Source: a virus
Lineage: Duplodnaviria > Heunggongvirae > Uroviricota > Caudoviricetes
Reading direction: 5' to 3' (one strand)
Length of the DNA: 39,614 nt
Virus record (IMG/VR): IMGVR_UViG_2579778871_000008
Shown here: positions 15,398-17,833 of the stretch, piece by piece
How positions within the stretch are numbered: the first letter of the stretch is position 1
How the letters are laid out: each line of letters starts with the position of its first letter
Notes under the pieces: model-generated
Seen by the model: the letters and a program-made list of their open reading frames with translations, nothing else
The model's database searches: none
What the model was told of the DNA's origin: nothing
Program-made: the position numbers and the translations under genes

Positions 15398-15790
15398 ACA
15401 CTGTTAACCCCTTGGTTGTTTCAGCCGCCGGGGTTTTACTTGTTATTCACTGGTATGAGTACGACATCTGGCTATTTCATTCCGGGCTTTACTGTCGCCG
15501 CGACAGATGCAACGCATCGTATCGCCGTTCAGCGTAGTGATATAAGCCTCATCCGTTTTCTCTACCTGCAAACATGAAATATTCCCGTTCCGGCAATACT
15601 CAATTTTTGCTGCCAGATGGGTATTACGCGGGTAAAACTCCATACGATACATATCCCCCCAGGACATGCACTTCCTCAACCTGACGACCATCTTCAGTTA
15701 CCGTAATCTTTTTCAGTGCGTACATACGTACCTCCGTTCTTTCGTTTTTTGAACAATAAAAAAGCCACCGAAGTGACCTTTTCGATGAGT

Positions 15791-16345
15791 TTATAAACCA
15801 ACGCGCTCTTTCATCCAGCCATAGACAAACGACTCGTTAGCCTCGCGTTTCTCTGCCAGCGCCAGATAACGCTCACCCTGCGTACAGTTCAGTGCTTTCA
15901 CCAGTACCAGTTCGCCATCCCTGCCGCGATTTTTCAGATAAGAACGTAACGCATTAATGGTTCGCGGCCCGATCCCCCCGTCTGTAACTATGTCCGGATA
16001 CAGCATTCCCTTCTGATTAAACACATTCAGCCAGCGCTGAAGCATTTTTGTGGCTACCGACGGCCCCATGTTTACCCCGGTATCACACAGTTCTGCAGCA
16101 ATATCAGGAGACAGGTTTGCCACCTGGTCAAAACGAGGTCCATACCAATAGTCCGCCTCAAGGATTTCCAGAGCCTGCCCGCGGCTCAAATCACGCATAT
16201 CACCACGGTAACCATGCGCGCGCGCCACTTTCTCAGTAATTCCCCACTTCGTCGCTCCGCCTGTATCGTCAGGATGACTGACATACCCCCCCTCTTTTCC
16301 GAGGATTTCATCAAAAATTTCATCTCTCGATTTCATATCAGCCAC
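15791..16345 (-). CDS. endolysin, GH108-like muramidase with peptidoglycan-binding C-terminal domain (soluble, no SAR signal)
   Basis: 184 aa MADMKSRDEIFDEILGKEGGYVSHPDDTGGATKWGIT... is a family 108 glycoside hydrolase-type N-terminus; follows the holin-like genes. Confidence 0.75.
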   Translation of the reverse strand: MADMKSRDEIFDEILGKEGGYVSHPDDTGGATKWGITEKVARAHGYRGDMRDLSRGQALEILEADYWYGPRFDQVANLSPDIAAELCDTGVNMGPSVATKMLQRWLNVFNQKGMLYPDIVTDGGIGPRTINALRSYLKNRGRDGELVLVKALNCTQGERYLALAEKREANESFVYGWMKERVGL

Positions 16346-16616
16346 TCAGGAAAGCAAAAATTTTTGAAACATTACCGCGCGCACGCACTACCATGACACC
16401 AAACACCAGGTTCAGCATCACAACCAGCCAGTCTGCCGGCAACGGATGACCACAGAGATAACTTAACGGCGTTATCGCATACAACAGCATCAGACACCAG
16501 GCGCACCACGATATCAGCGGTTTGTGTCGGGACTCTTTTCTGCGGTAGAAAAAAAGCGTCAGTACGATAACCGTACATAACGCCGCATTCAGTAATCCTG
16601 GAAGATTATTTGTCAT
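16338..16616 (-). CDS. holin/antiholin-like small membrane protein
   Basis: 92 aa from ATG at 16616 (GGAGGAGG SD upstream); about three hydrophobic helices; between the other holin-like gene and the endolysin. Confidence 0.55.
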   Translation of the reverse strand: MTNNLPGLLNAALCTVIVLTLFFYRRKESRHKPLISWCAWCLMLLYAITPLSYLCGHPLPADWLVVMLNLVFGVMVVRARGNVSKIFAFLSG

Positions 16617-16998
16617 TACCACCACCTCCTCCACGCTGACGGGAGAACAGACCGGATACCAGTGATGTAATCTCCTGCTGGTGGATGAATGACAGGACTT
16701 TTACTGAGAGCACCGACACCAGGACCGCACACAACGCATCAACGGAAGCACTGTTAAACCCAATACGTTCCGCCATGTAACCGGCCACACCACGGGCCCC
16801 AAGCACACCAACAATAAAGGACACCAGAAAATGTGCAGCCACACGCCAGGCTGAAAGTGTCTGCGGCATTGTTGCCACAAATAACGCACCAGCGAACGCA
16901 CCAAATACAATCCCGAAATCCGTCCCGGTAAACAGCCCGAATACCGTCGCCCCGCCGAGCGCCACAGCAGTGCCGGAACCGGATAAGGGTTCAGACAT
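16606..16998 (-). CDS. putative holin (multi-TMD membrane protein)
   Basis: 130 aa from ATG at 16998 (AGGAGA SD); Gly/Ala-rich hydrophobic segments; first gene of the lysis cassette; longer ORF to 17049 lacks an SD. Confidence 0.6.
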   Translation of the reverse strand: MSEPLSGSGTAVALGGATVFGLFTGTDFGIVFGAFAGALFVATMPQTLSAWRVAAHFLVSFIVGVLGARGVAGYMAERIGFNSASVDALCAVLVSVLSVKVLSFIHQQEITSLVSGLFSRQRGGGGGNDK

Positions 16999-17833
16999 AT
17001 TTATTCTCCTGTAAATAAAAAGGACCATCAGCGGCCCCGTAACTGACATTTTATTAACGTTTGAAGATATGGATATTTATCAGGGTTTACCGTTTTCTGA
17101 ACCCTGGATATGTTAAGCATTCAGCCCGCCAGTGGTGGGACGCTGGCTCATCATAGAGAAAGAGGGATGGCTGATTACCTCTGATCAGGGAAATCACATG
17201 CAGTTTTTACATAAAAGAATGCATTTAAATGCAGGAGATACGGTAGTGGTTGACTGCTCTCATCAGTGCAATATTTTGCTGATGACAGATACAAACTTTA
17301 ATAACTACCGCAACGCAAGAAGCTTTCATCATCACGGTGGTGGCGGTTTTTTTCAGAGATTACCGGCCCACCTTCATGTACCGCATTCAGGTTACTGGAA
17401 TATTACAATTGATTTAGGAGGCGGAAGTGCAGCTATTCGGCACTCCATTTCCGTCATCCCAGCATAGCAACTCGCCTTTAGCCTGAGTAAATGCGTCCTC
17501 AAGGACGGCAACGAGTCGCAGTTGCGTGCCGTCCTTTACACAGCGTGTGCAGGCAATACCTTCAGAACTTTCATTATGCCGAGCTCATACAATTTCACCA
17601 TTTTGTTCAACTACAACGCTCATAATTTTCTTACACTTTTTTAATAAACCACACCAATAACAACCATCACCGATACCTTTTGTATGCTGTTATTTTGCAT
17701 TACGGTGTAACGGCAAGAGCCCCCTCCCCGCCCACCAACACACCATCAGCCAGTACCGACATCAACCGCCCAGTGAAATCCACTGCCACTACCAGAAACA
17801 ACAGGATGGCAGCCAGCACAAGGCCCGCACTTT

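Follow-up and report, generated by a model that had tools for sequence, protein, structure and literature searches.

The closest described relatives of the lysis cassette analyzed here are those of the Stx2e phage phiP27 (genes L28-L30), the Stx2k phage phiSTEC1575 and Rac-SA53, in which a pair of holin families, arranged and overlapping as they are here (78-81% DNA identity), precedes a soluble endolysin. No experimental work on this holin_8/holin_3_7 cassette type was found in the literature. In phiP27 and phiSTEC1575 the endolysin is an M15 peptidase and is followed by lpp60, an ORF listed as the phiP27 o-spanin, an assignment that is bioinformatic only (Kongari 2018, PMC6139136). A second relevant arrangement is that of lambda and 933W, where Rz/Rz1 adjoins a convergent bor gene, while a third point of reference is provided by the phages that have no recognizable spanin, which amount to 91 of 677 phages (Kongari 2018, PMC6139136), or about 15% according to Holt et al. 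(bioRxiv 10.1101/515445), and with which phiKT, with its gp28 'disruptin', is grouped here.

Our window, by which we mean the whole 39,614-nt stretch of DNA that was analyzed, derives from a lambdoid prophage of Escherichia coli, and the interval considered here is its lysis cassette, which is of the phiP27 type. It differs from phiP27 and phiSTEC1575 in that the endolysin is a GH108 enzyme rather than an M15 peptidase and that there is neither lpp60 nor the small gene s57, with a bor-DUF1398 module in their place. With lambda and 933W it shares bor, a terminator hairpin, about 12 nt of the Rz 3' end and the position of these elements relative to the endolysin, but it contains no Rz/Rz1 coding sequence. 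It resembles the phiKT group as a Gram-negative phage cassette without a recognizable spanin, but no gene for a small cationic amphipathic peptide lies in or near it, and the gene in its gap, p93, is instead neutral, beta-rich, 93 aa long and a pseudogene. We consider it likely that this is a spanin-less cassette in which bor-DUF1398 replaced s57-lpp60, p93 is an inactivated accessory gene, and lysis would stall or be delayed at the outer membrane.

The cassette is read on the minus strand in the order Phage_holin_8, Phage_holin_3_7, GH108/PG_binding_3 muramidase, and it is separated by a gap from the convergent bor gene. The first gene (16606..16998, within an ORF reaching 17049) encodes, from the PGAP start, a 130-aa membrane protein with three hydrophobic segments that matches Pfam PF16931 (3.5e-22; 79.2 bits against a gathering cut-off of 26.4) and phrog_198 'holin' (2.6e-39) and is named 'putative holin' by PGAP. 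The second (16338..16616, with an ORF start also at 16634) overlaps the end of the first by 11 nt and encodes a 92-aa protein with three TMDs that matches PF05449 (4.2e-21; 75.2 bits against a cut-off of 25.4) and phrog_217 'holin' (2.3e-35), and is a 'phage holin family protein' in PGAP. With profile scores above the gathering thresholds and multiple TMDs, both proteins belong to holin families and are predicted to have holin activity. The endolysin gene (15791..16336, with an ORF start also at 16345) begins 1 nt past the Phage_holin_3_7 stop, and its soluble 181-aa product contains both PF05838 (Glyco_hydro_108; 2e-25, 89.6 bits against 21.2) and PF09374 (PG_binding_3; 9.5e-25, 87.0 bits against 24.6), with a further match to the NCBIfam 'holin-associated N-acetylmuramidase' (1.3e-20) that falls under that family's cut-off. 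Its N-terminus, MKSRDEIFDEILGKEGG, is hydrophilic and has no signal or SAR sequence, and this is a canonical, holin-dependent endolysin. The two holin-like proteins and the GH108-type endolysin had been placed at these coordinates by an earlier sequence-only reading, and the Pfam matches bear this out.

That reading had also put about 430 bp between the endolysin and bor, and the gap is exactly 430 bp (15361-15790). Within it, two small overlapping ORFs had been noted separately, and while both are present, a frameshift has divided what was a single gene of 93 codons, p93 (15443..15725, minus strand; phrog_33497), between them. The 5' half is a 33-codon ORF (15725..15624) preceded, as had been reported, by a perfect Shine-Dalgarno sequence, GGAGG at 15735-15731, five nt before the ATG; the 3' half is an overlapping ORF of 82 codons (15691..15443). 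The first matches positions 1-25 of the phrog_33497 profile (1.4e-9) and the second positions 22-94 (4.6e-36), so that together they cover the entire profile, and they share 99% identity with intact E. coli proteins, but a +1 frameshift interrupts the window copy and the match is split across two frames at a G6 run (15655..15660 on the minus strand, C6 on the plus strand). The frameshift is due to one extra G in what is a G5 run in three intact homologues (alignment A1). The window shares G6 with nine related loci (including L003, L046-L050, L060, and L061), while G5 is found in Ceylon31 (L004), where the allele encodes an intact 93-aa protein, and in the other intact copies. A sequencing error is ruled out by the recurrence of G6 in independent assemblies. 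Programmed frameshifting at the G-run has no supporting feature, and both the PGAP call ('frameshifted' in the prophage of strain EC43) and an IS-disrupted allele favor a pseudogene. The 430-bp gap holds no other ORF with a ribosome-binding site. An intrinsic-terminator-like hairpin with a T-run was located by pattern scan between the endolysin and p93 (15755..15788, minus strand), and relatives retain a GC-rich hairpin and T-run here, with stems that differ in sequence (alignment A1); together with the hairpin beyond bor, p93 has hairpins on both sides.

The location of p93 raises the question of a lysis role, which the sequence-only reading had offered for the two small ORFs. The gene lies directly 3' of the endolysin in late operons of E. 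coli, Edwardsiella and Aeromonadaceae, selection on intact copies is purifying (dN/dS mostly 0.12-0.2, range 0.05-0.33), and there are Edwardsiella prophages with the order holin, GH108, p71, p93 in which our scans detected no spanin within 4 kb. Hence one might suppose that p93, alone or with p71, replaces spanins as a soluble protein that passes out by the holin lesion to disrupt the outer membrane, with the window copy inactivated recently. We regard this as very improbable, as intact homologues stand alongside lambda-type Rz/Rz1 in eight loci (L030, L033, L068, L072, L073, L075, L076, and L077) and alongside lpp60 in 38, the gene precedes the holin in Proteus, Providencia and Xenorhabdus, and it is found in only about 10 of the 80 lpp60-anchored cassettes and is missing from about 70. 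Moreover, it is frameshifted throughout the window lineage, in one locus with an IS disruption in addition, and the protein has a net charge of 0, no hydrophobic segment, signal or TMD and no amphipathic cationic character. As judged from its sequence and from a structure model (pLDDT 85.7) that is all-beta, with seven strands and one helix, p93 does not appear to be the small, strongly cationic, amphipathic helical peptide expected of a disruptin. A spanin substitute is therefore contradicted by co-occurrence, gene position and absence from most sister cassettes, and the suggested lysis role of the small ORFs is not supported. Searches for a function gave no Pfam, NCBIfam or PADLOC match, and a profile search of 1.84 billion representatives returned only 20 clusters, every one of them unnamed. 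The sequence data point to p93 as one of the optional accessory genes in the Q-to-terminase cargo zone, from a narrow uncharacterized family, and not to an outer-membrane disruptor. Two Edwardsiella ORFs, orf162 and orf216, were considered as u-spanin candidates and proved on inspection to encode cytoplasmic-looking proteins.

Spanins were sought in several ways. A regex lipobox scan of all frames and all start codons across the whole 39.6-kb window, which includes the interval for which the sequence-only reading had called for an all-frame lipoprotein search, gave Bor as the only credible lipoprotein, and Bor matches Lambda_Bor over its full length and has no C-terminal TMD. No ORF in the window therefore has the lipoprotein signal and C-terminal TMD of a unimolecular spanin of the T1 gp11 type, nor is there an o-spanin, with signal peptide and lipobox Cys, in an embedded, overlapping or adjacent gene. 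A scan for a single N-terminal TMD from every start codon on the minus strand between 13600 and 22600 gave no i-spanin-like ORF, that is, none of type II with one N-terminal TMD and a largely helical periplasmic domain; what it returned were artefacts, two of them within the holin_8 gene (one from an internal start, one read in another frame) and a third from the C-terminal portion of a gene of 237 aa. The window had no tblastn match to lambda-type Rz, Rz1, lpp60 or s57, and the PGAP annotation of the EC43 prophage, followed through both flanks to attL/attR, includes no spanin. This prophage is near-identical to the window, 48 kb in length, and is integrated at tRNA-Ser in the hyaA/yccA interval. 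The absence of a recognizable Rz/Rz1 pair was thus correctly noted earlier, and of the two explanations then offered, that spanins are absent agrees with their being undetectable in the window and in the rest of the EC43 prophage, with the bor-DUF1398 replacement as the cause, while spanins encoded elsewhere find no support within this prophage.

What sister cassettes carry in the corresponding slot is clear. In the great majority the endolysin is followed by lpp60, either directly or after optional p71, p93 and s57, and in a few by lambda-type Rz/Rz1 in place of lpp60. The lpp60 gene (phrog_7528) encodes a 60-aa precursor whose lipobox reads LVGC and whose mature part, of 30 aa, contains three Cys residues. 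It is present in 39 p93 loci, in phiP27 and in 80 further loci, over 200 stretches of IMG/VR contigs match it, and it is carried by two Stx phages. In all of the 80 lpp60-anchored loci that have upstream sequence it follows holin8-holin3_7-(M15 or GH108), with Rz/Rz1 in none of the 80, and its start is 14 nt beyond the stop where the endolysin is M15, and overlaps the stop where it is GH108. In seven loci it is directly ahead of a convergent bor. In the window this slot is occupied by DUF1398-bor and no ORF of the lpp60 type is present; as the o-spanin assignment of lpp60 is bioinformatic, the missing component in the window is itself a matter of inference. Candidates for an inner-membrane partner of lpp60 were examined and rejected. 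The 64-aa phiP27 'i-spanin' (Kongari 2018, PMC6139136) is found in only two of the 80 loci and is antisense to a 90-aa ORF. The sole TMD of s57 lies right at the C-terminus and the N-terminal part carries net positive charge, which leaves the protein with practically no periplasmic domain. In two loci (L030 and L033) true Rz/Rz1 are preceded by an analogue of s57 of 45 aa.

The probable origin of the arrangement can be read from its junctions. The replacing module comprises the bor lipoprotein gene (15067..15360, plus strand; PF06291, Lambda_Bor, 1.6e-30; phrog_260), which is convergent with the cassette, and as second gene a DUF1398 (YbcV-like) gene (14432..14842, plus strand; PF07166, 9.8e-43). 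Downstream of bor is a hairpin terminator (15369..15390, plus strand) common to 933W and Perceval, where it lies between bor and Rz. By blastn, 15417-17021 resembles PapRG, 14879-15403 the bor region of 933W, and 13330-14274 the cos/terS flank of relatives; homology of the 933W bor-module type stops at 15403 and that to the cassette relatives begins at 15417, which places the right-hand mosaic junction at 15404..15416. On the left, blastn against L005 and L001 puts the breakpoint close to 14274, giving a module of about 1.1 kb (approximately 14275-15416). In alignment A3 the match of the window to 933W and Perceval ends after about 12 nt of the Rz 3' end. The module is of the kind that adjoins Rz/Rz1 in 933W-like phages, with its boundary at the extreme end of the former Rz gene. 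From these breakpoints, the 1.1-kb DUF1398-bor module appears to have replaced an s57-lpp60 segment between conserved flanks, and the prophage would lack an outer-membrane gene because this swap removed the small lipoprotein gene of its relatives. It would thus be a natural spanin-less derivative.

We propose that the two translationally coupled membrane proteins would be made by late transcription under Q antitermination and would permeabilize the inner membrane, releasing the cytoplasmic muramidase to degrade the wall. Without an outer-membrane component, lysis after induction would be expected to stall or lag at the outer-membrane step, with spherical cells where Mg2+ stabilizes the outer membrane and the culture is unshaken. 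Mutants of lambda Rz/Rz1 lyse anyway in shaken cultures without added divalent cations, and so the defect of the window may be conditional. Shear, or the spanins of co-induced resident prophages, could finish lysis. The latter leads to an alternative reading, in which outer-membrane disruption is supplied from outside the cassette, by the Rz/Rz1 of co-induced lambdoid or cryptic prophages or by an unrecognized protein elsewhere in the prophage. Most E. coli hold several lambdoid prophages, the 12-kb late region matches a median of three places per genome, the cryptic prophages of K-12 encode the gene pairs rzpD/rzoD, rzpR/rzoR and rzpQ/rzoQ, and the arrangement persists in about 12 genomes. 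However, no spanin is annotated or detectable across the 48-kb EC43 prophage, and the spanins of other prophages are in Q-dependent late operons, for which simultaneous induction and a compatible Q/qut would be needed. We consider supply from outside the cassette unlikely, although other resident prophages may still provide spanins in trans.

A different possibility is that one or both of the 'holins' make an outer-membrane component unnecessary, in which case lpp60 would be a moron, such as a Cor/Llp-like exclusion lipoprotein. Consistent with this, lpp60 has no conserved inner-membrane partner, its mature part of 30 aa is too short to span the periplasm, and it is absent from both Rac-SA53 and the window lineage. 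Rac-SA53, however, is visibly defective, with an O-terS fusion through deletion, and in the commonest layout lpp60 and the endolysin are coupled in translation, lpp60 being present in every sampled lpp60-anchored holin8-holin3_7 cassette. Moreover, lpp60 and Rz/Rz1 are mutually exclusive in one slot, the pattern expected of functional equivalents, and we judge dispensability through the holins to be quite improbable. It is conceivable, as a speculative extension, that in the holin_8/holin_3_7 cassettes lpp60, a lone 30-residue lipoprotein, breaches the outer membrane as a third kind of disruptor beside spanins and the disruptin, perhaps in the manner of colicin-release lipoproteins and not by membrane fusion, with the window as a natural lpp60-null derivative that persists in many E. 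coli strains. If so, the window would be a ready genetic background for testing the action of lpp60 and the modulation of lysis by p93. This lead is more interesting than the window and lies outside it. As the constant fourth gene of a widespread cassette, for which the i-spanin partner given in the literature is without conservation, lpp60 is a lead for specialists in phage lysis.

The import of the window in itself is small and its practical value is in annotation, where the gap should be given as a single pseudogene rather than two small ORFs and the prophage flagged as being without a spanin equivalent. What it illustrates is how a prophage can lose its outer-membrane lysis function when modules are exchanged where the endolysin region meets bor. 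The whole case is one of ordinary prophage mosaicism and decay. As a point against our reading, the spanin-less arrangement recurs, with identity of at least 99%, in about 12 E. coli genomes of varied host and country, and the phage may thus still be spreading. The lineage also shows signs of decay: in one locus (L061) an IS21-like element has inserted within p93, several sister prophages carry IS elements, and EC43 has a tail-fibre pseudogene.

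The stretch from 15398 to 17049 of this E. coli lambdoid prophage contains three tightly packed minus-strand genes, encoding a Phage_holin_8 protein (16998..16606, PGAP start), a Phage_holin_3_7 protein (16616..16338, with an 11-nt overlap of the two genes) and a muramidase with GH108 and PG_binding_3 domains (16336..15791, starting 1 nt past the Phage_holin_3_7 gene). All three are assigned by Pfam, with scores well above the gathering thresholds, and by PHROG, in which their families are designated 'holin' or 'endolysin'. The N-terminus of the muramidase is hydrophilic, and it is therefore regarded as a canonical holin-dependent enzyme. 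The convergent bor gene (15067..15360, plus strand) is exactly 430 bp from the endolysin, and the gap, the two holin-like proteins and the GH108-type endolysin are as the sequence-only reading described them. A terminator-like hairpin with a T-run (17021-17038, minus strand) immediately precedes the holin_8 start, ~5 kb downstream of Q (21814-22479); the cassette therefore seems to depend on antitermination and to be insulated from the cargo genes. Between Q and the cassette (17132-22479), the cargo comprises a DNA methyltransferase, a TerB-family protein (17834-18259), a 45-aa membrane protein resembling DUF3927/TciB (17700-17837) and, on the opposite strand, a DUF1883 gene (17198-17467), as well as several hypothetical genes.

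Spanins are absent from the window. A lipobox scan of its whole length, in all frames and from all starts, returned Bor alone; a scan of the late region for i-spanin-like topology gave no credible candidate, tblastn of the window with lambda-type Rz and Rz1 from a relative gave no match, and the PGAP annotation of the near-identical prophage in E. coli EC43 lists no spanin across its entire 48 kb. The earlier claim that the cassette lacks a spanin is therefore upheld. Passages in Kongari 2018 (PMC6139136) and Holt et al. (bioRxiv 10.1101/515445) put phages of Gram-negative hosts without recognisable spanins at ~13-15%, so the absence alone is unsurprising.

The accompanying proposal, that small ORFs in the gap have a role in lysis, did not survive, as they are the halves of one frameshifted gene whose family co-occurs with Rz/Rz1. 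On the 95-position phrog_33497 profile, the 33-codon ORF covers positions 1-25 and the 82-codon ORF positions 22-94, and alignment with intact copies of this 93-codon gene (p93) from E. coli Ceylon31, E. coli PapRG-04-4 and phage phiSTEC1575-Stx2k places one extra G in a G5 run at 15655-15660. The EC43 locus is labeled 'hypothetical protein, frameshifted' by PGAP. Ceylon31 has G5; the window, EC43 and seven IMG/VR contigs share the G6 allele, which rules out a read error and shows the frameshift to be inherited. At another locus (L061, 5212-7334) a 2123-bp IS21-like element with ORFs of 390 and 265 aa sits inside an already frameshifted p93, at a point equivalent to 15515-15520 of the window. 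Intact copies have dN/dS values mostly of 0.12-0.2 (range 0.05-0.33, for pairs with dS up to 1.07) and are real genes; homologues with 50-65% identity occur in Edwardsiella, an Aeromonadaceae MAG, Xenorhabdus, Proteus and Providencia.

Could an intact p93 replace a spanin by disrupting the outer membrane? Across 78 p93-encoding loci, the usual order in E. coli is holin_8, holin_3_7, endolysin (GH108 or M15), an optional 71-aa Cys-rich protein (p71), p93, a 57-aa tail-anchored membrane protein (s57) and a 60-aa lipoprotein precursor (lpp60), with the small terminase further on. At two loci (L030 and L033), p93 is followed by a 45-aa s57-like protein and then by a textbook Rz, which has an N-terminal TMD and 67% identity to 933W Rz and contains an embedded Rz1 bearing both a lipobox and a PPPPP stretch. 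The p93 loci of Xenorhabdus and Proteus also have lambda-type Rz/Rz1, and in these p71-p93 precedes the holin instead of following the endolysin. In a further set of 80 cassettes anchored on lpp60, p93 is found in only ~10. The p93 protein is neutral (net charge 0) and lacks any hydrophobic segment, its confidently predicted model comprises seven beta strands and a C-terminal helix (pLDDT 85.7), fold and profile searches yielded no lead to function, and its gene has hairpins on both sides. Given this co-occurrence, position, rarity and protein character, p93 fits an optional accessory gene within the Q-to-terminase cargo zone and does not fit an outer-membrane disruptor. A caveat comes from Edwardsiella prophages (L006, L007, L054-L057, L065), in which a lambda-S-like holin and a GH108 endolysin are accompanied by p71 and p93, with the small terminase next; within 4 kb our scans picked up no spanin, which makes this a second, independent, apparently spanin-less layout. 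At many p93 loci p71 (phrog_4298; L006, 5717-5932, plus strand) is the gene just upstream, and the motif EVHVLG near both N-termini suggests that the two proteins share an N-terminal hairpin or form a functional pair.

What occupies the spanin slot in the sister cassettes is lpp60 (phrog_7528; L001, 2599-2781, minus strand), whose lipobox reads LVGC and whose mature part has 30 residues, three of them Cys. It matches 215 stretches in IMG/VR contigs, and in the 80 loci fetched it is preceded by holin_8, holin_3_7 and an endolysin of the M15 or GH108 type wherever upstream sequence exists, with Rz/Rz1 at none of them. It is the constant fourth gene of such cassettes and is often translationally coupled to the endolysin; in the most common layout its start codon either lies 14 nt past the stop of M15 or overlaps that of GH108. 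At seven loci it immediately precedes convergent bor, the place held by Rz/Rz1 in lambda and 933W. It is also present in phiP27 (L082, 1938-2126, minus strand), where the RefSeq record annotates another frame (L32) over it and Kongari 2018 (PMC6139136) assigned the ORF (20706-20861) as an o-spanin partnered by a 64-aa i-spanin (20348-20542), a pair whose periplasmic length, 62 residues, they note to be shorter than that of any other. The 64-aa ORF is found at only two of the 80 loci, in identical copies, and is antisense to a 90-aa ORF, and hence lpp60, a putative o-spanin, lacks a conserved inner-membrane partner. This is the part of the analysis that merits an experiment. Small tail-anchored membrane proteins ending in RWW (phrog_4493, phrog_1115), namely s57 (L001, 2783-2956, minus strand) and its 45-aa analogue (L030, 5358-5492, plus strand), lie immediately upstream of lpp60 at 35 of the 80 loci and of Rz/Rz1 in L030 and L033, and might be lysis regulators.

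The blastn breakpoints indicate how the window lost this segment. Homology to the sister cassettes extends over 15417-17021, from the p93 terminator through holin_8, and resumes at 13330-14274 in their cos/terS flank; between these, 1.1 kb of DUF1398 and bor takes the place of the ~0.7 kb s57-lpp60 segment seen in PapRG. The interval 14879-15403 is 86-88% identical to the 933W-type bor module, bor terminator hairpin included, and the match ends ~12 nt into the 3' end of the Rz of those phages. The module was thus imported from a phage in which it adjoined Rz/Rz1, but it brought no spanin along. In the Rac-SA53 prophage (L002, 2753-3893), LT-IIa toxin genes follow the GH108 endolysin in place of p93 or lpp60, and the site immediately after this endolysin is therefore a recurrent point of cargo exchange, for toxins, p93/p71 and bor. 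The cassette in the window is a degenerate representative of a known type, a case of ordinary prophage mosaicism.

The gap region is 100% identical in four complete genomes and at least 99% identical in 12, and the EC43 prophage lies between tRNA-Ser/hyaA and yccA. The p93 frameshift, late-region insertions of IS3, IS2 or IS21 in several sister prophages from complete genomes, and a side tail-fibre gene annotated in EC43 as a truncated pseudogene (L163, 18019-19581, outside the window) are consistent with relaxed selection for lytic growth. Against this, the same arrangement persists in ~12 unrelated isolates, which keeps rival explanations alive. From their family membership, the two holin-family proteins would permeabilise the inner membrane and let the muramidase out. 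Lambda Rz/Rz1 genetics (Berry et al., cited in Kongari 2018) leads one to expect that lysis without an outer-membrane component would arrest at spherical cells if the outer membrane is stabilised, and its completion could come from shear or from the spanins of co-induced prophages.
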